DNA from: a virus
Lineage: Duplodnaviria > Caudoviricetes
IMG/VR virus record: IMGVR_UViG_2904150443_000004
Coordinates: 32,001-96,000 of that record
Strand: one strand, 5' to 3'
DNA: 64,000 bases
Shown one piece after another: positions 26,262 through 45,654 of the stretch. Within the stretch, counting starts at the first letter, position 1. Each line of letters begins with the position of its first letter. The position numbers and the translations under genes were made by a program. The notes below the pieces were generated by a model. It was given only the letters and a program-made list of their open reading frames with translations. It made no database searches and was not told the origin of the DNA.

Positions 26262-26660
26262 ATGACTGACAGAGTTGTTCAATATAAGAGAGATGATATT
26301 TGGTTGGCAGATTTGGGTGGATCAGCTGGTTCTGAGCAAGGTGGAATTAGACCTGTATTATTGATTTCGAATGATATTGGGAACCGCTTTAGCCCTGTAG
26401 TTATCGGTGCTGTAATTTCTTCTGCAACTACTAAAAAGAGAATGCCAACACATGTAAGTCTGCCAGCCAACAGGCATGGGTTAATTAAAGACAGTTTTGT
26501 TGGTACTGAACAATTAAAGACAATTGATAAATGGTGTCTGATTGAAAAATTAACAACAATAGATGAAGAGACTATGGACGAAATAAACGAAGCATTGATA
26601 TTAAGCTTAGGACTGAGAGATTACATAGATAAAAAATATATAAAGAGAAAGGATGTATAA
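26262..26660 (+). CDS. mazF: PemK/MazF-family endoribonuclease, no upstream MazE
   Basis: KRDDIWLADL...GSEQGGIRPVLLISNDIGN...EQLKTIDK. Confidence 0.92.
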   Translation: MTDRVVQYKRDDIWLADLGGSAGSEQGGIRPVLLISNDIGNRFSPVVIGAVISSATTKKRMPTHVSLPANRHGLIKDSFVGTEQLKTIDKWCLIEKLTTIDEETMDEINEALILSLGLRDYIDKKYIKRKDV

Positions 26661-26936: not shown

Positions 26937-27124
26937 CATATTAAGGCCGACAGGCAAGATAATCCAGATAATTAAAAGTAAAATAATTTAATAGTAATCA
27001 ATAAACGGAGGTGTTAATTAGTGTATAAAAATGGTAGACTTATTGACGGGAAATTATACATACATACAAAAATGGGTAACAGAATAAATCTAAAATTGTT
27101 CAAGGATGAGCATCTGAACAACTA

Positions 27125-29038
27125 ATGAAACTATGTTTTTATAAGGAGAAAAATGAGGAGTGCAAAATGACAGGTGAGAACTTTAAAAGAATAAATCGTA
27201 AAAATTCAGAAGTTGAAAAACTTAAAGAGGAACTAGAAAACGCAAGAGTAGCATTCACTAATTATAGTAAAGCACCTGATGAAGACAGTTGGAGTTTTGA
27301 TGAGTTGTACAGGCTTCAAAATACTGTTATTAATTCAGAATATAATTTATACTGTGCTAGGTATGAAGATAACAGAAGAAGAAACTGGAGATAAAAGATT
27401 ATTTAGAGAGGTGTAAAATGAGACTGCGGAACAAACTTATTAAAACTGTTGCCCAAAGTGAAGAATTAAGAAGTAAATTTTCTCTATATTCTACTTATAA
27501 AGAACCTGATATTGATAGAACTAGATTTGTACTAACTGATTCAACTGATATTGTAATATGCAATGAAGAAGAAATTAATAACTATTTAAGTGCAGGATTC
27601 AGTATTTTTGGTTCAGCACAGTCTAATGAAGAAGTAGATGCAATTATTTCGAGAGCTGAAGTATCTTAACATGAAGCATTCAAAAGGAGACTGATAATTA
27701 TGGAATCGGCGTTGAACTTGTTTGGAATAGAAATTTTGAATTGCATATCTTATGATTTCACTGAAGATGGGATTCAATACAATAGCGTGACGTTTTGTAT
27801 TAGCTCTCTAAAAAAATACGATGGCCTGTGTGTTGAAGTAAATCATGATTGGAAAATAAGAATTTGGAGTGTGTTAGGGGAAATTGTTAAAGAATTTTAC
27901 ATAATCGAGAACGAAGAGTTTAAGAGATTGCTTTATAGTAAATATCCTTTGAAATAATATTAAAAAAGGTGGTGGAAATGTGAGCAAGAATAATTTTGAA
28001 GTGGGTAAGAAAGTATATTTGTCACTAGGAATTAACAAAAGTAGATATAGTAGTGTGGATTATGTTGAAGGTGAAGTAACAAAAGTAGGTAGAAAGTATG
28101 TCACTGTTAAAATAGGGATTACCCAATATCAGTTTGATCTCACAGATAATCTAAGACAAAAGACGGATTACGCAGAAGATTACTATCTCTACGAATCCCT
28201 AGAAGAATTGTTAGATGAAAAAAGAAGAGAAGAATTAGCTCGACATTTGAGCGTGTATTTCTCAGGCTCCTATAATATAAAGAACAAGCTAACGTTAGAT
28301 CAAATGCAGCGAATCAAGGATATTATTTCTGAATAAAATGATCCTTTCAAGAGGTGATTGGTATGAAATTTAATTTTGAAGATTCAGAAGAATTAAAGCC
28401 AGTTTCGTGGATCGATGTTTGGTATGACAGAAGACAGAGACTATGGACAGCGATACTAAAGAATGATGATGATTTTCAAATAGGTGATGCTGAATATGGT
28501 TCAAAAAGTGATATAGGAGCTATAGTGGAATCTTGGATTAACGAATATGAATTAGATAGAACATACATCTCAAAAAAACAAATCCAACAAAAGAAAAGAC
28601 ACTGAGATTAATCACAGCATTTTAGATGAAATGAATATTTGATGGGGAGTGAGTAATGTGGATTATAAGTTTCGTATAGTAAGCACAATGGAGATTACAG
28701 GTGAAGTGGACAATGAACAGTATCAGATTAATGAAGGGGAAGAGTTAATTATTCAGTCTCAATCAATTGATAAATTAAAGTGGTTCGTATTTATTCCATC
28801 TATTGAAAAGTTTGATTACATAGAAAAGTATAAGATTGATTTACTAATTACAGATTACATATTCTATCCGCAATATTACGGAGAATTTCAATTGCCAGTG
28901 ATTAGTGATAACATCCACACTTACGCATTTATCACCCCTAGTGGATATGTTCAATGTGCATCAAAGAAAGATATAATCGAATTAAAATCATACAAGGAGG
29001 TACAGCGAATTAGCAGTGATGAGATTCGATTTAAATAA
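27125..29038 (+). other. Small hypothetical genes (27167, 27418, 27700, 27980 beta-barrel-like, 28354, 28649)
   Basis: Co-oriented ORFs with RBSs and boundary motifs. Confidence 0.7.
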
Positions 29039-29067
29039 AAACAATTCTTTGAATAGGTGATAACAAG

Positions 29068-29577
29068 ATGGATGAGAGAATAATTTTCGACACGCACACA
29101 GAGAACCTAAAACGTGAGTTAAACGTTGATCCCTTAGTTTTCTTTGGTGATGAAGCGAAAGAAAAAACTAAAAAATATGGTTCAATATTTCATGGAGCTC
29201 ATGTTTGGGAAGAAGAGTCTGAGTTTGTGGCTGTAAAGGACATAAATCAGATAGGGACTCTTGCACATGAGATGCGTCATAGTTGGCAGTACAAGAATAA
29301 AGACAAAGAGAACTATATATTTCGAAGCAGTAAAGACAAGCCATGGATAATAAGAAAACTAATACGAGCTTTATATTTAATATATTACCCGTTTAATAGA
29401 AAAGAATTGGATGCCAATAAGTATGCAGTTGAATATTGCACAAAAACAGGTTTACAAGCTGAAGTATTAAGAATTGAAAAGCTAATAACGGGAAATAGAA
29501 TAGCACAAGTAATCACTTTAGCAGCACATCTATTATTTTTTTATTTGATATACCTCATTTGGATTATTGTTAAATGA
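29068..29577 (+). CDS. HExxH zincin-like protein with C-terminal TM helix
   Basis: TLAHEMRHSWQ...ELDANKYA. Confidence 0.7.
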   Translation: MDERIIFDTHTENLKRELNVDPLVFFGDEAKEKTKKYGSIFHGAHVWEEESEFVAVKDINQIGTLAHEMRHSWQYKNKDKENYIFRSSKDKPWIIRKLIRALYLIYYPFNRKELDANKYAVEYCTKTGLQAEVLRIEKLITGNRIAQVITLAAHLLFFYLIYLIWIIVK

Positions 29578-29828
29578 TATTAATAGGGAGAGAAAAAATG
29601 AGAAAAACTGGAAAGAAACTATTGATAGTTTGGGTACATTTCCACAGCGTCAAGACTCAGTAGTAGAACAACTAGAGGATTTAGTTTACGTTGCTAATAA
29701 ACTAGGCTTTTACGATGCAGCTGACATTATAAAGGTAATGGCAATTAGAGAGCATAGAAAAGCTTTTAAAAGTGAATAAAAAGATTATTATATTTGCTTT
29801 GATTACAGAAGGGAGAAAATGATAAGGA

Positions 29829-30515
29829 TTGAAAAGTAAAAAATGTACAAAATGTGGTGAAGAGTTACCTAAAAATGAAGAGTACTTCTATAAACAACTG
29901 GTAAGATGCCAAAGGAAATCAGATTACTATAAACTAACATCATGGTGTAAAGACTGTTCTAAGAAAAATACTAAAAATAACATCGATAAAGATCGAGAGG
30001 GTTTTTATAAAAGACAAAAACCATACCAAGATGCAAATCAAGGCATAAGAAATAAGCGTGCTAGAGATTGGAGAGTCAATAATCCAGATAGAAATCGAGA
30101 TAATCAATCAAATTATTATATTAGAGAAAAAGATTCTGGTAGATTTAAAATGTATTACAGTAATAGAAAAAAGAAAAATCATAAAATATCAGCAGAAGAG
30201 TGGGAACATAATAAAAGATATTTTAATTACAAATGTGCATATTGTGGCATGAAACTAGAAGAACATTATAGGCTTTATGCTGGAAAATTACAAAAATACG
30301 ATTTTCATAAAGAACATTATGATGACAACGGAGCTAATGATCTTAGTAACTGCGTCCCAAGTTGTGGAAGTTGCAATAGTCAAAAATGGGAATTTGAAAT
30401 TGGAGAATGGTATAACGAAAGCAATCAAAAATATTCAGAAGAACGCTTTAGTAGAATTATTAAATGGATAAAAGAAGATTATATATTTTACATAGAAGGT
30501 AAAGATAAAATGTAA
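29829..30515 (+). CDS. HNH endonuclease
   Basis: N-terminal CxxC pairs; KCAYCG...KEH...NCVPSCGSCNSQK. Confidence 0.85.
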   Translation: MKSKKCTKCGEELPKNEEYFYKQLVRCQRKSDYYKLTSWCKDCSKKNTKNNIDKDREGFYKRQKPYQDANQGIRNKRARDWRVNNPDRNRDNQSNYYIREKDSGRFKMYYSNRKKKNHKISAEEWEHNKRYFNYKCAYCGMKLEEHYRLYAGKLQKYDFHKEHYDDNGANDLSNCVPSCGSCNSQKWEFEIGEWYNESNQKYSEERFSRIIKWIKEDYIFYIEGKDKM

Positions 30516-40520: not shown

Positions 40521-41858
40521 ATGAGTGGAAATGTACAAACGGTTGACCTGTACGAAGTGCTTCCAGATGTGCTTACTGAAGTGAATAAAAACAAAGAAAT
40601 GCAAAGAGATATTGAAGAGATACTTGCAACAAAACATAACATCGCAAGAGGAACATTTGCTGAAATTTTGATAAATAATGGTCGTTTCGACGAAATATTA
40701 AATAACATTGAACGTACAGTCGTTGTTAAAGTTGTGAATGAAATAACTAATGACAATAGAGTGAATCCAAGTAATTTTTACACAAAAACGGAGATCAATA
40801 AAGCAAATAAGTACAAAAGAACAAATGGTGGAGAAGTGTCACTTCCATATACTTTTGAGTCTGTACTGAAGACTTCAGATATTGATTATTTAACCGTTTT
40901 AAGTTACCAAGACATCGCAAAACTTTGGAACTACGGAATTCTAACTTACAATTTCCAATCTCAAAGATTATCCAAGAAAAAAATGAATTCAAAAAATAAA
41001 ATTGTTGAGAAGGCTGATGTTAATTTACGAAGCGTGAAAAACATTGTTAGATTGATGCAAGAGGGCAAATATAGTCCATCAACATTACTATTTAATGTAC
41101 TTGTCGATGGTAAAAGTTCTATTGAATACGAAGATGGAGAACTTACAGTTACCGAAGAAAGTACTATCAACTTAATTGATGGCATGCATCGCGTACAAGC
41201 TATTTTGAAGGTGATTGAAGAGAATCCTGATTTTGAAGGGTATATGAATGTTGATATAAAACATTACACCCTTGAGAAAGCTCAACAGCTCTTAGCCATA
41301 ACAAATATGGTAAACCGTTTTGATAAGACATTGATCAAAAATTATATGGCTGAATCGATTGGCGCGAAGATTACAAAAGATTTGATGACTATAGCTGAAC
41401 TCAAAAATAAAGTGTCTATTAAGACCACTTTAGACAAGAAGCTTAATTACTACACAAACTTTGCAATCTTGTCTGAAGCTATTGAATCTGTATTTGAGCC
41501 TGAAAATACTAAGGATCAGTTCGACTATGCCGATGTTCTTAAAAAGTTCTTCGGTTACATGATCCCCTCATATGAAGAGAAATTCAAAAATAAGAACGAG
41601 GAAATCAAAACAAGTTGGTTTACACATCACAACATGTTCGTAGGTTTTGTAGTGATTGCTAAGAAACTTTATGATAAATACGGAAAAGATTATCCAGTTG
41701 ATGAGATTGTAAGAATTATTGATGGAATAGACTTTTCGAAGAATGAAGATTCTGAACTGAATCAGATTTTGACAACACAAGGGAAAGTAAATAGTAATAA
41801 AGTTAAGAAGAATATTAGAGAGTTTTTTGATACGAAGGTAGACGAGCTGCTTTCATAA
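40521..41858 (+). CDS. DndB/DGQHR-family ParB-like protein (YopQ/SroE-like)
   Basis: INLIDGMHR motif; about 445 aa; directly upstream of the YopR-like gene. Confidence 0.8.
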   Translation: MSGNVQTVDLYEVLPDVLTEVNKNKEMQRDIEEILATKHNIARGTFAEILINNGRFDEILNNIERTVVVKVVNEITNDNRVNPSNFYTKTEINKANKYKRTNGGEVSLPYTFESVLKTSDIDYLTVLSYQDIAKLWNYGILTYNFQSQRLSKKKMNSKNKIVEKADVNLRSVKNIVRLMQEGKYSPSTLLFNVLVDGKSSIEYEDGELTVTEESTINLIDGMHRVQAILKVIEENPDFEGYMNVDIKHYTLEKAQQLLAITNMVNRFDKTLIKNYMAESIGAKITKDLMTIAELKNKVSIKTTLDKKLNYYTNFAILSEAIESVFEPENTKDQFDYADVLKKFFGYMIPSYEEKFKNKNEEIKTSWFTHHNMFVGFVVIAKKLYDKYGKDYPVDEIVRIIDGIDFSKNEDSELNQILTTQGKVNSNKVKKNIREFFDTKVDELLS

Positions 41859-41891
41859 GTAGCTCATAATCCTCTCAAGGAGGTATTTGTT

Positions 41892-42869
41892 TTGTCTAAT
41901 AAGATATATGAAGATAAATTGTTCAATGAAGATTTAAAATATGAGTTCATCAATCAATATGGATTTGGTACTCAAAAAGTTATTGTTCGCCTATTTAAGG
42001 TTTCTCAAGTAATGGAGTCTGATATGGGAAAGGATATATATGACTTCAATCGTGAGGAATTAAGAAAATTCTTTTTTTATCTTTTACCTAAGACTGAAGC
42101 TGCGAGTAATTCGAATGTCACTTGGATTCAGAAATATATTGAGTGGGCAATTGATGAAGGCTATAAGGAAGGGCTAAACCCTCTCGACATGGTCGATTCA
42201 ACTTGGAAGAAGCAGTTTGCTAATGCTAATCTGAAGCAGCTCTGGACTGACAAAGAGATAGATGAGATTGTTGACCCAACTAAACGTGCTAATTATCAAG
42301 ACGCTGCACTTGTTATGATGCTTTTCTCAGGGATTAAAGGCCAAGGGAACAGTGAAATACTTAGTCTTAGAGAAAAGGATATAAACTTTAAAACAAATGA
42401 AGTGCTATTACACGATGAAGATGGAAGCACAAGGACTACAATCGTAAGTGATAAATGTATTGAATTCATGCGTAAGGCATTAAATGAGACAGAATATGAA
42501 AAGATGAATGGCTTTGCTTCGCCAGATATCAAAGCTCCAACTGCGAAGTTGGTTGAAAATGAATATGTGATCAAGAGTGCAACAACACGCACTATTCACT
42601 TTGAAGAGGCAGATAAGTTCATTGTAAGTAGAAGGATCTCAAAAATTGCAGATGAATTAAATATGCCTACATTTACGCCTACTGCAATCTTTAGAAGTGG
42701 CATGCTCGCACTGGCTAAGGATGCTTACTTGCAGTCTGGTGAGTTAACTGATGACGCAGTAAAAGTGATTCAAGTGAAATTTGGTGGTAGTGGTGACACA
42801 ATCGATTATAGATTGAAGCAAGATTTATTAAATGCAGAACTTGTAAAAGAAGTTTATCAAATACCCTAG
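41892..42869 (+). CDS. Catalytically degenerate integrase-fold repressor (YopR/MrpR/SroF-like)
   Basis: MGKDIYDFNREEL N-terminus, FSGIKG (catalytic R lost), AIFRSGM (HxxR lost). Confidence 0.8.
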   Translation: MSNKIYEDKLFNEDLKYEFINQYGFGTQKVIVRLFKVSQVMESDMGKDIYDFNREELRKFFFYLLPKTEAASNSNVTWIQKYIEWAIDEGYKEGLNPLDMVDSTWKKQFANANLKQLWTDKEIDEIVDPTKRANYQDAALVMMLFSGIKGQGNSEILSLREKDINFKTNEVLLHDEDGSTRTTIVSDKCIEFMRKALNETEYEKMNGFASPDIKAPTAKLVENEYVIKSATTRTIHFEEADKFIVSRRISKIADELNMPTFTPTAIFRSGMLALAKDAYLQSGELTDDAVKVIQVKFGGSGDTIDYRLKQDLLNAELVKEVYQIP

Positions 42870-42931
42870 ATTATAATTCTAGGGTATTTTTATTATTTTG
42901 CTTGACTATATGGAGATAAATATGGTAAATT
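42859..42931 (+). promoter_or_regulatory. Terminator followed by the promoter of the agr-like operon
   Basis: AAATACCCTAGA/TCTAGGGTATTT hairpin; TTGACT(42902) and TGnTAAATT(42923-42931). Confidence 0.65.
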
Positions 42932-42959
42932 ATACTCATAAAGAAGAGGGGATAGAAGA

Positions 42960-43481
42960 GTGATAAGTAAATTAAGTAAAAAGTTAGCGAAATATTTGTT
43001 TAGTAATATTGATGAGAATGATATGACTAGATTTGCCAACAAGGGATATGATATAGTTGAACTAGAGAGCAGGTTAAAAGTATTATTTATATACATGTTT
43101 ATGATACCAATTATTATCATTGAAAGTGCATTTACGGGATTATGGATGGAGAATCTTATTTCACTAGTTATAGTTTTTGGATTAAGAGTTCTAAATAAAG
43201 GGCATCACTTTTCGCCTGATGTGTGTCTTATTGTTACAACTTCTATTATTGTATCTGTGCCTTTGATTAGTGAGTTTTTAAATAATGATTTATTAAAATT
43301 AAATATAGTAATAATAACAATTATATTATACATATTGTTTCCAGAACAGTTGAGTACTAAGAATTATCATAAGAAATTTATTTCAATAATATTGTGTGTT
43401 TTTGGTTATTACTTAATTGATTTACTTTTAGCTGCTCTGTTTATCTTATCATTTGATCAACTAAAACTAAAAAGAGGGTAG
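42960..43481 (+). CDS. agrB: AgrB-family peptide-processing membrane protease (AloB-like)
   Basis: MISKLSKKLAKY amphipathic N-terminus; LRVLNKGHHFSPDVC with catalytic His and Cys; multiple TM helices. Confidence 0.85.
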   Translation: MISKLSKKLAKYLFSNIDENDMTRFANKGYDIVELESRLKVLFIYMFMIPIIIIESAFTGLWMENLISLVIVFGLRVLNKGHHFSPDVCLIVTTSIIVSVPLISEFLNNDLLKLNIVIITIILYILFPEQLSTKNYHKKFISIILCVFGYYLIDLLLAALFILSFDQLKLKRG

Positions 43482-43490
43482 GGCATTTTA

Positions 43491-44153
43491 ATGCTAAATG
43501 ACTTTTTAGGGTATTCGCTATTTTCAACTTTAGAATATCTGGGTATATTCTATATGATATTTACGCTATTTAGCTTACATCCTTCTTATCACATTATTAA
43601 ATTAGTAACAATGTCATTAATAATATCAATATTGTCGTATATATGTGTAGTTTTTAAAATATACGACCTCATTCCAGCACCTTTGATAACAATACTTACA
43701 ATATCTATGATGATTCATTTTATAATAAGAAAAAAAGTTGTTTATAGTTTTGTTATCACTGGAGCTGGTGTAGCAATTGCGGCAGGTATACAACTAAGTA
43801 CCACAGGTTTGTTCCTTTTGAATAATTTTCTATCCATAGAGCAATTATCACATTCATTTGGTATTAAGACATATGTGATACAGTCAATAAATACATTCGC
43901 ATACTTCTCGATATCATTAATTTCACATCACACACATGGTCGCTTTGGTTACAGCTTTAGAAAAGGGAATGAATATAAGAAATTTGTTGTGCTTGCATTG
44001 TTACTAGTGGTAACTATATCAATATTTTTCATAGCGTTCTCATTTATTGACACAACTGAGTTGACATATTTATTTTTATTTATTGTAGTTGTATTATCAG
44101 CTATTATTTTCTTATACCTGTCTAATAAACAAGATGAGTATGAATTTAAATAA
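43491..44153 (+). CDS. Polytopic membrane sensor (AgrC-N/AloC-like) lacking a kinase domain
   Basis: About 7 TM helices, 220 aa, no H-box or ATPase domain; lies between agrB and the peptide gene. Confidence 0.7.
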   Translation: MLNDFLGYSLFSTLEYLGIFYMIFTLFSLHPSYHIIKLVTMSLIISILSYICVVFKIYDLIPAPLITILTISMMIHFIIRKKVVYSFVITGAGVAIAAGIQLSTTGLFLLNNFLSIEQLSHSFGIKTYVIQSINTFAYFSISLISHHTHGRFGYSFRKGNEYKKFVVLALLLVVTISIFFIAFSFIDTTELTYLFLFIVVVLSAIIFLYLSNKQDEYEFK

Positions 44154-44187
44154 TATATAAGTTAACTAATTTGAGGAGGTGAATAAA

Positions 44188-44295
44188 ATGAAAAAGTCGA
44201 AAATGAATGTAGCAGGTGCATTGCTTGTGGCTGTGTTTGCACTTCCATCTGTAGTTGTTGGCAAGTTCTTCTTGTTCTGTGATACAAGCAAGTAA
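44188..44295 (+). CDS. 35-aa signalling pro-peptide (AgrD/AloP-like), absent from the ORF track
   Basis: GAGGAGGTG RBS; MKKSKMNVAGALLVAVFALPSVVVGKFFLFCDTSK; hairpin at 44339-44361 downstream. Confidence 0.8.
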   Translation: MKKSKMNVAGALLVAVFALPSVVVGKFFLFCDTSK

Positions 44296-44394
44296 TATCA
44301 AACATAAAGAGTTACATAAGAATTATACATAGTGAAATGAGCGTATCTATTTGATACGCTCTAAATACACCATCGCATCAACAATAATAAGGGG

Positions 44395-44895
44395 ATGGAT
44401 TATACTATGTTTCGAAAAATAATTGAAACCATTAAAAGAATGTCTGCAAATGAACTGATAAGTGTGTCTTCTGAAGTTGATACTGAATTATCTAAATTAG
44501 ATGGTGTAGTTAAAATTCCTGTGGGAGTAAATAAATTTACTGTCATTGAGGTAGACACCATAAACTACATAGTTTGCCCTAAAAATAAGGTGGCTATCAT
44601 TCATTTGAATGATGGAAAATCTATTGAATGCAAACTTTTATCGAATGAGCTTTGTGAATATTTAGAGTTTAATCATAATAACTTTAGAATGTTAGACAAC
44701 GGATTGTTGGTTAATATAGATAATATTATTGAATATGATTCATATATGCTGAAAATTTATTTTACAGAAGAGAAGTTCGCTGTTATAAACAAAAAAGCAA
44801 TGAAAAATATTGTTTCTAAATTAAATATTGAGGATATAACAAAATCTGCTGATCCCCAATTGGATTACTTAGTTAAGTTTGTAAAGAATTCTTAA
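44395..44895 (+). CDS. LytTR-domain regulator without receiver domain (AloR-like)
   Basis: IEVDTINYI...FRMLDNGLLVNIDNIIEYD. Confidence 0.75.
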   Translation: MDYTMFRKIIETIKRMSANELISVSSEVDTELSKLDGVVKIPVGVNKFTVIEVDTINYIVCPKNKVAIIHLNDGKSIECKLLSNELCEYLEFNHNNFRMLDNGLLVNIDNIIEYDSYMLKIYFTEEKFAVINKKAMKNIVSKLNIEDITKSADPQLDYLVKFVKNS

Positions 44896-45005
44896 TACCA
44901 TGCCTGAAGCATTCTGTCAAGGATTTTGTTTTTTTGAAAAAAGTTGTTTAAAGATATTTATTAGGTTGATATAATTTTAATATCAATATTTAGTAAAAGG
45001 AGGAA

Positions 45006-45254
45006 TTGCCGATGACATCAATACAGGATGTGCTTTGGAGCAATTGGGAGACTAGTGTCCATCATTTTTTCTTGTGGATTAGAAATGTATGCGAGATAGA
45101 TGAGAATAGTGTAACTTATCAACAGTTACGTGAAATAATACATAGTGTTAATGACATCTCAGATTTTACAAACTTCTTTGATGGTGACATTGACAATATT
45201 TCTGATGCTGTTAGTGGACTTATTCGGTACAAAGAACTTTTTCGTATCGCGTAA
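45006..45254 (+). CDS. Hypothetical protein
   Basis: AAGGAGG RBS; terminator-like hairpin downstream. Confidence 0.6.
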   Translation: MPMTSIQDVLWSNWETSVHHFFLWIRNVCEIDENSVTYQQLREIIHSVNDISDFTNFFDGDIDNISDAVSGLIRYKELFRIA

Positions 45255-45411
45255 TCAAAATGGAGGAGGTTTGTCTAATGGTGAACTTTCTCCATTAAAA
45301 AAATAAAATATAAAAAACCATTGACATTAGATAGTGTGATTTGATAAATTAATCTCAGAAGTTAATACATAAGCAGTAATGAAAGATAGATTTCATAGTA
45401 AGTTAATCAAT

Positions 45412-45486
45412 GGACTCATAGCTCAGTGGTAGAGCGTTCGGCTCATAACCGATTGGTCGTAAGTTCAAGTCTTACTGAGTCCACCA
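45412..45486 (+). tRNA. tRNA with CAT anticodon, Ile2-type (lysidine, reads AUA)
   Basis: GGACTCA/TGAGTCC acceptor, CTCATAA loop, encoded CCA. G1:C72 pair and overall sequence resemble Bacillus tRNA-Ile2 rather than fMet. Confidence 0.85.
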
Positions 45487-45489
45487 TGT

Positions 45490-45561
45490 GTCTCTATGGC
45501 CAAGTGGAAAAGGCGCAGATCTCCTAAGTCTGTATCGATGGTTCGAATCCATCTAGGGGCG
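45490..45561 (+). tRNA. tRNA-Arg(CCT)
   Basis: GTCTCTA/TAGGGGC acceptor, CAGAT-CTCCTAA-GTCTG anticodon arm, GTTCGAATC T-loop; no encoded CCA. Confidence 0.8.
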
Positions 45562-45654
45562 TTTGAAATCAACACTCATTAAGAGTGATTAAATAGATTG
45601 CTTTTTGTTTGTTGATTTAAAAATAAAATTATAAGGGAGATTGATGAAATTAGT

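Follow-up and report, generated by a model that had tools for sequence, protein, structure and literature searches.

An agr-type cassette with a kinase-less membrane protein and a LytTR-only regulator beside the yopQ–yopR repressor genes of an SPbeta-like provirus

Described peptide systems and the cassette of the window

Peptide communication as known from phages, namely arbitrium and phage Rap-Phr, works with imported peptides and cytoplasmic RRNPP receptors. Here we analyze a locus of different architecture in a stretch of 64,000 nucleotides (hereafter the window), which comprises bases 32001–96000 of the 146,367-bp provirus record IMGVR_UViG_2904150443_000004, rated 100% complete by CheckV. 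Directly 3' of a yopQ–yopR gene pair, the window carries a cassette composed of an AgrB, a seven-helix membrane protein, a pro-peptide, and a LytTR-only protein. The cassette is very common in Paenibacillaceae and is fixed beside the master-repressor genes in a clade of SPbeta-like prophages; the same architecture is found where small temperate phages of bee-associated bacteria carry their lysogeny genes.

The cassette is a variant of the agr type that was noticed in passing in three phages in 2014, when its LytTR-only regulator was not recognized. For the Brevibacillus phages Abouo, Davies, and Emery, an AgrB, a putative AgrD, and membrane proteins regarded as possible AgrC homologues without ATPase domain were described (Hargreaves et al., 2014, PMC3901668). 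The accessible portions of that article mention no LytTR gene for these phages, and they report that no response regulator was found in C. difficile phage phiCDHM1 (PMC3901668). In a literature search that left supplements aside, this remark was the only one found on a kinase-less AgrB/LytTR cassette. The agr3 locus of phiCDHM1 differs from the present locus by its full-length AgrC kinase. Moreover, the window phage is set apart from both the Brevibacillus phage cassettes and agr3 as a 146-kb SPbeta-like prophage with AgrB-first gene order and another type of peptide.

With the agr system of the Staphylococcus aureus type the cassette shares an AgrB-family peptidase with an adjoining small pro-peptide gene. 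It further resembles this system in its multi-helix membrane protein, for which the fold of AgrC-type sensor domains is predicted, and in its DNA-binding protein, to which the LytTR domain of AgrA is the closest relative of solved structure. In contrast to S. aureus, neither the cassette proteins nor the provirus contain a histidine kinase or a receiver domain, the genes stand in another order, and the window peptide lies outside the AgrD model, with no C-terminal tail after the Cys-x4 ring position. The agr-like loci reported from Paenibacillus polymyxa are classical; they comprise an AgrBD that yields thiodepsipeptide autoinducers together with an acetylase (PMC12180512) and an agrABCD locus with kinase and response regulator (PMC13700820).

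An earlier note on this DNA, made from the letters alone, had referred to agr-like Alo operons of P. polymyxa. This was wrong, as each Alo system is described as an aloR–aloP pair whose TPR-containing receptor is intracellular and belongs to the RRNPP family (Voichek et al., 2020, PMC7425212). Like the cassette, the Alo systems belong to peptide signaling, occur in the same family of bacteria, and are numerous within a genome; their components, however, share nothing with those of the cassette. Arbitrium (AimR-AimP-AimX) likewise places a phage-encoded peptide signal near the yopQ–yopR genes of an SPbeta-like phage, but the provirus has no AimR homologue, the components are unrelated, and sensing by the cassette would take place at the membrane and not after import. 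In the LytTR regulatory systems HdrRM and BrsRM of Streptococcus mutans, a LytTR-only regulator is reported to be kept inactive by an adjacent membrane protein (PMC6193735). The cassette is similar in that the gene of a soluble LytTR-only regulator stands beside a membrane-protein gene with no phosphorylation partner; it differs in that its unit also contains AgrB and a peptide gene.

The putative receptor, the LytTR-only protein, and the peptide

All six genes placed by the earlier note are found on the + strand at or near where it had put them, and the other elements of the locus described below with coordinates (hairpins, promoter-like site, and a small open reading frame, ORF82) are on the + strand as well. 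The anatomy proposed in that note, in which yopQ/yopR are directly followed by genes for AgrB, a kinase-less seven-helix protein, a small pro-peptide, and a LytTR protein lacking a receiver, was borne out by Pfam, family profiles, and AlphaFold2 (AF2) models. Its statement that a kinase is missing holds for the whole provirus, in which neither HATPase_c (PF02518) nor Response_reg (PF00072) found a match, with positive controls for both. The first cassette gene (42960–43481) encodes an AgrB-like membrane peptidase of 173 amino acids (aa) that matches PF04647 (30.6 bits, cut-off 23) and phrog_10353. Its alignment with relatives shows a conserved His and Cys at a distance of seven residues, and we take this pair to be catalytic by comparison with S. 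aureus AgrB.

The second gene (43491–44153) encodes the seven-helix membrane protein of 220 aa, a putative peptide receptor. It matches phrog_15604 (5.3e-10), belongs to no Pfam or NCBIfam family, and has no kinase domain. Seven long helices are predicted in the AF2 model (predicted local distance difference test, pLDDT, 87.8; predicted template modeling score, pTM, 0.84). A profile search of 1.84 billion representative proteins returned 58 representative relatives, all of 139–237 aa and none fused; those that bear a name are called “hypothetical protein.” As all 58 relatives are of this length, the kinase-less form is the norm and not a truncation. A decayed agrBDCA locus was considered as an explanation of the cassette and ruled out, since the short form is conserved as the norm. 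Conserved columns are located in three places, namely a FSSLEY-like motif at the N-terminus, the loop connecting helices 5 and 6 (GFGFxFR-like), and the tail at the C-terminus (KRDxxEF-like); by the positive-inside rule, loop and tail would both face the cytoplasm.

The Atlas model of the membrane protein (residues 1–220) aligns to the membrane domains of HATPase_c_5 kinases of 444–506 aa with template modeling (TM) scores of 0.71–0.80. One of the matched kinase clusters has the domains SPOB_a/HATPase_c/HATPase_c_5, as have the kinases that stand beside chromosomal copies of the cassette. Proteins of 413–421 aa from three genomes (L135 2288–3553, L136 2433–3674, L137 1734–2999) consist of the seven-helix domain (E 1e-10 to 1e-18) and a fused soluble domain, and a Pfam scan of these fusion proteins found no kinase. 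At an hhalign probability of 56%, their soluble half is collinear with the DHp/CA region of the cassette-adjacent kinases. In this same alignment, the fusions carry other residues at two positions of the kinases that we take to be the H-box His and the N-box Asn, with their functional roles. This suggests a path from an AgrC-type kinase over a pseudokinase to the bare seven-helix protein, and judged by the models the membrane protein is likely homologous to the AgrC-type sensor domain. As a separate observation, a soluble HisKA+HATPase_c protein of 269–270 aa is encoded just upstream of the fusion in L135 and L137, with AgrB downstream.

MroQ, a membrane protease in S. aureus AgrD processing, is a member of the Rce1/CPBP superfamily, whose proteases typically have a His/Glu motif. 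A CPBP/MroQ-like protease identity of the seven-helix protein was rejected, with no Pfam match and no conserved His or Glu motif. It could still be a helper of peptide maturation, export, or self-immunity instead of a receptor, with the LytTR protein as an independent regulator of the operon, but we consider this very unlikely. Such a role would suit a membrane protein outside the Pfam and NCBIfam families and has a parallel in MroQ as a membrane helper of AgrD processing (10.1101/2021.12.29.473670); in addition, no AgrB was detected in two loci (L095 in genome G033 and L096 in G210), which keep the other three cassette genes. The latter arrangement, however, fits a listening-only receptor better. 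Furthermore, the nearest structural neighbors are the sensor domains of AgrC-type kinases and not proteases or transporters, the conserved columns lack a CPBP-type His or Glu motif, and the fused forms bear a kinase-like cytoplasmic domain. L095 and L096 hold close relatives of the window's three corresponding cassette genes, and these do not adjoin yopQ–yopR. Elsewhere in the provirus (G000), an Rce1/CPBP-like membrane protease (PF02517, 1e-19) is encoded at 133125–133736 (L007 2125–2736), at a distance of about 58 kb from the cassette.

The LytTR-only protein of 166 aa (44395–44895, alternative start 44407) was assigned by family profile and AF2 model. Its Pfam LytTR score is 19.0 bits, below the cut-off of 22.6. 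The LytTR identity is nevertheless secure, because the family profile A4 (30 members) gives E = 2e-9 with the LytTR domain of AgrA and the AF2 model (pLDDT 85.5) aligns to AgrA LytTR crystal structures with TM 0.81–0.83 (E ~1e-6). In the model, two short N-terminal helices precede the LytTR domain at the place where a receiver would stand.

Between the genes of membrane protein and regulator, a pro-peptide of 35 aa is encoded in the AgrD position (44188–44295), its ATG 9 nt after a GGAGG; an alternative 38-aa form starting at GTG abuts the ribosome-binding site. The N-terminus of this peptide is basic and then hydrophobic. Peptide ORFs at the same place in four related loci (L093, L094, L095, and L096) have a hydrophobic N-terminus and share with the window's peptide a conserved decapeptide at the C-terminus, K-[FVL]-[FW]-x-F-[CL]-D-x-x-K-stop, with variable residues ahead of it. 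The peptide of L095, the locus without detectable AgrB, has Leu in place of Cys. The syntenic peptide of a further locus (L097) is just recognized by the AgrD model TIGR04223 (19.5 bits, cut-off 19) and reads as a classical AgrD with Ser at the ring position and an EVPEEL-type tail.

Another peptide type is encoded in loci in which the seven-helix gene comes first. These peptides have no Cys at the ring position (loci L055–L062, L112, and L113), and all nine that were read have an invariant Lys, which precedes a Gly-(Ser/Ala) junction by five residues, and a Pro-x-Glu-Leu-like tail as in AgrD. When the peptides are aligned by Lys, a five-residue core K-x-x-x-(G/F) precedes a tail of 11–15 residues in the counted peptides of the P. 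alvei group, as compared to 5 residues in the window type. The peptides of the loci with the membrane-protein gene first may, by their sequences, be lactam-type autoinducers; closure of the ring through the conserved Lys as a lactam, instead of through Cys, is speculation.

The balance of the evidence tips slightly toward the cassette being a self-contained, phage-borne agr derivative, in which the receptor controls the LytTR protein by contact and not by phosphorylation. Going by family membership and gene order, the AgrB-like peptidase would process and export the 35-aa pro-peptide, and the released peptide would accumulate with the density of prophage-bearing cells. The seven-helix protein, modeled with the fold of an AgrC-type sensor domain minus the kinase, might then sense the peptide at the membrane. 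By analogy to the membrane inhibitors of the streptococcal LytTR systems, this receptor could hold or release the LytTR-only protein by direct contact, which is the most likely connection because the phage has neither kinase nor receiver; candidate contact sites are the GFGFxFR-like loop and the KRDxxEF-like tail of the receptor and the two N-terminal helices of the LytTR protein. Once freed or captured, the LytTR protein would alter transcription from phage or host promoters, and ORF82 (see below) is one candidate target. If true, a peptide receptor in the membrane would here be connected to a LytTR regulator without phosphorylation.

Several results weigh against this picture. Regarding the receptor, no long (kinase) relatives of the membrane protein were found by HMMER at E ≤ 1e-3, and Foldseek against the PDB gave nothing at E ≤ 0.001. 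With hhalign, the comparison to the N-termini of four HATPase_c_5 kinases reached 13.5% with only the last helix aligned, and that to seven cassette-adjacent kinases reached 7.8%, though it was collinear over 144 columns. In some genomes, related seven-helix proteins adjoin soluble HisKA/HATPase kinases, so that a kinase acting in trans is possible for the family. Regarding the peptide, no match to TIGR04223 was obtained for the window's peptide, which hit no family at E ≤ 1; its single Cys, in fifth place counted from the C-terminus, leaves no tail for canonical AgrB cleavage after a five-residue Cys ring. Regarding the regulator, a search for LytTR-type direct repeats (9-mers, ≤1 mismatch, 9–24 nt spacing) found none in 42860–42960, and thus none before the cassette promoter as known from the S. 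mutans systems, nor in the other intergenic stretches of the cassette. The window also departs from S. mutans in its seven-helix membrane protein, which is neither DUF3021 nor DUF2154, and in the reverse gene order with the membrane gene first. As membrane-protein family, gene order, and promoter repeats all differ, the cassette at most works like a LytTR regulatory system and is not a member of this group.

Distribution and gene order in Paenibacillaceae and their phages

Using a 38-sequence profile, the membrane-protein family was detected in 188 of 301 sampled Paenibacillaceae genomes, with one to six copies each and more than 300 in all; in a class sample, 24 of 301 genomes contained it at E ≤ 1e-5. 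Among the 30 best loci, AgrB was adjacent in 28 and a LytTR-only gene was located within 1.5 kb in 24, one further LytTR gene being recovered by phmmer. A small ORF was present in the peptide position at every locus inspected. The cassette is thus more than a chance assembly, because the same gene set recurs in many genomes. If the proposed route is real, it would also explain a common family that has so far been carried along without annotation, under the labels “hypothetical,” “membrane protein,” or “peptidase.”

Two gene orders prevail in these 30 loci. Seven-helix gene, AgrB, peptide, and LytTR follow each other in 23, with regulators of 111–143 aa where found; the window's order (AgrB, seven-helix gene, peptide, LytTR) occurs in five, with regulators of 153–186 aa where found, and the remaining two are L095 and L096. 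The linkage to yopQ–yopR seen in the window is kept in three other Paenibacillaceae prophages. In these low-GC (guanine-cytosine) regions (L093, L094, and L097 in genomes G292, G054, and G113), the order yopQ-yopR-agrB-seven-helix gene-peptide-LytTR-ORF82 is the same as in the window, and in L097 agrB abuts yopR. Comparing these three loci and the window, YopQ and YopR are 38–63% identical, as opposed to 21–43% for the cassette proteins. The higher divergence of the cassette fits diversifying signal–receptor pairs.

Copies in other prophages and phages are found as well. Paenibacillus alvei DSM 29 has six copies, at least three of them in prophage contexts. Among their neighbors are lysis cassettes and small resolvase genes; one copy is close to a terminase gene and to a large serine recombinase gene that adjoins a PrkA fragment. 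In one of the DSM 29 loci (L058, G003:C15:130000-139836), a prophage large serine recombinase is encoded beside a PrkA AAA fragment of 155 aa, and the peptide ORF runs without a stop into a LytTR ORF of 278 aa, either a fused peptide–regulator or a mis-called start. With a type-A relative as the query, the cassette was identified in the Paenibacillus larvae phages Harrison and Paisley and in the Brevibacillus phages Abouo, Davies, and Emery; the membrane-protein profile matches Abouo at 7e-25 and Harrison at 3e-20. The cassettes of Harrison and Abouo are located between integrase and repressor/Cro-like genes. Their LytTR-only genes are labeled “peptidase” (Harrison gp41, L112 5648–6004; Abouo gp47, L113 5651–6019), as is phrog_15081. 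This label is probably a propagated mislabel, and the entries would need correction to a LytTR DNA-binding protein.

The family is not confined to phages. Among 12 loci with host-like GC content, five (L116, L119, L121, L123, and L128) share one chromosomal neighborhood with genes for PrkA, a GH18 enzyme, a methyltransferase, and MatE, and they adjoin one or two SPOB_a/HATPase_c/HATPase_c_5 kinases, which may sense the same peptide.

Other searches yielded few additional relatives. A DNA search of the 4.4-kb region against phage records and a tblastn of the window's membrane protein against phage records gave no match, and no related loci were found among viral contigs. The word-based protein search returned one relative only (59% identity). 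The sequencing-run search listed one DNA run, which may be the source sample, and no RNA run.

The repressor pair, possible outputs, and the provirus

The gene pair upstream of the cassette forms a repressor module of the SPbeta type, with adjacent YopQ (DndB-like) and YopR/MrpR genes in the same order as in phi3T. The first gene (40521–41858) encodes a YopQ-like protein of the DndB/DGQHR type of 445 aa (Pfam DndB 1.8e-15; phrog_5732 1e-77), which is 38–60% identical to the syntenic proteins of L093, L094, and L097. The second gene (41892–42869) encodes a YopR/MrpR-like protein of 325 aa with tyrosine-recombinase fold (MrpR_N_CB 2.6e-25; MrpR_C_cat 1e-19), about 32% identical to YopR of the phi3T/SPbeta group by tblastn. 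The lysogenic state of SPbeta is reported to depend on MrpR, i.e., YopR (PMC10516654). Compared as a pair, YopQ and YopR are about 30% identical to the pairs of phi3T/SPbeta, Geobacillus E3, Alicyclobacillus KKP_3916, and Brevibacillus Sundance.

Over the yopR stop codon lies a hairpin resembling an intrinsic terminator (42859–42889), with a 12-bp stem followed by a T-run; by eye, similar hairpins follow yopR in L093 and L094. Downstream of it, a sigma-A-type promoter-like site, TTGACT and TAAATT at a distance of 18 nt with a TG, was recognized by consensus match only (42902–42931), and in the promoter consensus scan as a whole such sites were no more numerous than in shuffles. The arrangement TTGACT...TGnTAAATT recurs in L093, and a similar one is present in L094, again by eye. 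Within the cassette, a stem-loop with a 9-bp stem is located between the peptide and LytTR genes (44339–44361), where the RNA fold of the intergenic stretch has −16.0 kcal/mol and a z of −1.8. In L093–L096, the corresponding interval forms a stable hairpin (−14 to −27.8 kcal/mol, z −2.7 to −6.2), so that it is stable in five of six loci and weak in L097; it is possibly an attenuator or a 3' stabilizer. The cassette has its own promoter-like site and terminator-like hairpins on both flanks, which, together with its position by repressor or integrase/repressor genes, fits expression from the prophage.

Directly 3' of the cassette, the small conserved ORF82 (45006–45254) is preceded by a promoter-like site at 44947–44975. 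Its homologues are found directly 3' of the LytTR gene in L093 (4e-15), L094 (1e-18), and L097 (1e-11, all by phmmer), and no Pfam or PHROG family was matched. ORF82 is a candidate output gene of the LytTR protein. Among short sequence elements, a ATTCGACA element stands just after the LytTR stop codon in L093, L094, and L097, with three copies in L093, two of them 21 nt apart; it is absent from the window. In the search for LytTR-type direct repeats, L094 gave a 12-bp pair. In the window, one 9-bp direct repeat pair with 20-nt spacing lies upstream of yopQ (40344/40364), which is about chance level by our estimate of approximately one per 300 bp. Just 3' of the cassette, the window also encodes tRNA-Met (CAT) and tRNA-Arg (CCT) at 45412–45562, with a TTGACA promoter-like site upstream at 45321.

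The earlier note had seen no arbitrium locus in the window, and the same result was obtained for the rest of the phage. AimR (Pfam PF22871) had no match at E ≤ 10 in the whole provirus, with a positive Bacillus subtilis control; the phi3T AimR protein found no match in the provirus, with phi3T as positive control; and none of the 14 provirus proteins tested matched phrog_1728, the family that phi3T AimR hits. Pfam scans of 104 ORFs of the window and 71 ORFs of the rest of the provirus detected no TPR/RRNPP receptor, and no AimR was found in the five genomes holding the nearest cassette relatives.

The cassette might replace arbitrium, as the earlier note had proposed. The peptide would signal how densely infected or lysogenic cells are present, and yopQ–yopR or early lytic promoters would be tuned by the LytTR protein, which would thereby set the frequency of lysogenization or induction. 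We regard this as rather doubtful. The reading is based on gene position. The cassette stands directly after yopQ–yopR in all four cassette-bearing SPbeta-like Paenibacillaceae prophages, down to the abutting agrB and yopR genes of L097, and in phi3T the same gene pair is preceded, at a distance of about 2.4 kb, by the arbitrium genes. The cassettes of the small phages Harrison and Abouo are likewise neighbors of integrase and repressor/Cro-like genes. The missing AimR in the provirus and in the five genomes with the closest cassettes is consistent with a replacement, as are the several divergent copies per genome (e.g., the six of DSM 29, at least three of them in prophage contexts) and the fast divergence of the components. 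Nevertheless, the SPbeta-like phages Sundance and KKP_3916 contain neither AimR nor the cassette, so that the lack of AimR needs no replacement. The same family also occurs in ordinary chromosomal contexts with host-like GC, beside kinases in five of 12 loci, the terminator-like hairpin insulates the cassette from yopR, and the repeat pair upstream of yopQ is near chance, no credible binding sites having been found.

A host-directed role appears about equally likely. In that case the cassette would be a moron which adds a signal or interferes with the host's paralogous cassettes and kinases, altering sporulation, antibiotics, competence, or the recognition of kin lysogens, and the phage decision would not be under its control. 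Host genomes with one to six paralogous cassettes, of which the chromosomal copies adjoin SPOB_a/HATPase kinases in five of 12 loci, would offer such targets, and its own promoter-like site and flanking hairpins would suit this role. Copies in P. alvei DSM 29 lie at prophage ends after the lysis genes, the typical position of a moron, and host-directed roles for phage agr genes were proposed by Hargreaves et al. (PMC3901668). As pure cargo, however, the cassette would leave its place beside the repressor in four large phages and beside integrase and repressor in two small ones unexplained. In addition, the peptide type of the window differs from the chromosomal type-A peptides of the host species, so that cross-talk is not evident. 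Neither role, on the phage decision or on the host, is probable by itself, and the remaining probability belongs to a signaling unit with an unnamed output.

Extending the lysis-lysogeny reading, one may picture an arbitrium-like decision system built from agr parts, although this too is improbable. Each Paenibacillaceae prophage would have its own AgrB-processed peptide, perhaps with a Lys lactam ring, and an AgrC-derived receptor that has shed its kinase would sense this peptide on the outside of the cell, gate the LytTR protein directly and, through it, act on the yopQ–yopR circuit; peptide dialects would keep co-resident prophages apart. If true, this would be a second, mechanistically new kind of phage-to-phage communication. 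If the contact route proposed above is real, the cassette would also be a tractable model for asking whether agr-type signals can govern lysis and lysogeny.

With regard to its background, the provirus is by its gene content a distant SPbeta relative and appears to be a large SPbeta-like prophage of P. alvei. In addition to the YopQ/YopR pair, it encodes a YolD/UmuC pair, a DNA ligase, a ribonucleotide reductase, and a Pol III alpha subunit, and other genes are also typical of large temperate siphoviruses. Its right end (provirus G000 142937–146367, corresponding to L007 11937–15367) encodes a large serine recombinase, followed by a C-terminal fragment resembling SpoVK (AAA_lid_6) and by HflX. 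HflX is 100% identical to that of P. alvei TS-15 and “P. suaedae” chi10, which places the host in the P. alvei group. The prophage may split spoVK; the left junction of such an integration was not found in the provirus record, and an SPbeta-like phage integrating at spoVK has been described (bioRxiv 10.1101/2021.11.22.469490).

Further observations concern other genes of the provirus. A toxin gene of the PemK/MazF type (6e-28) is located at 26262–26660 of the window; arbitrium of phi3T is reported to act via the host MazEF (PMC10769878). The segment 24001–26000 of the window has a GC content of 0.41, compared to about 0.32 around it, and encodes a protein with HTH_7 and zf-CGNR. LAGLIDADG inteins are present in a protein of 1040 aa encoded next to the portal gene and in the ribonucleotide reductase large subunit (provirus G000 26960–30082 and 127185–130427).

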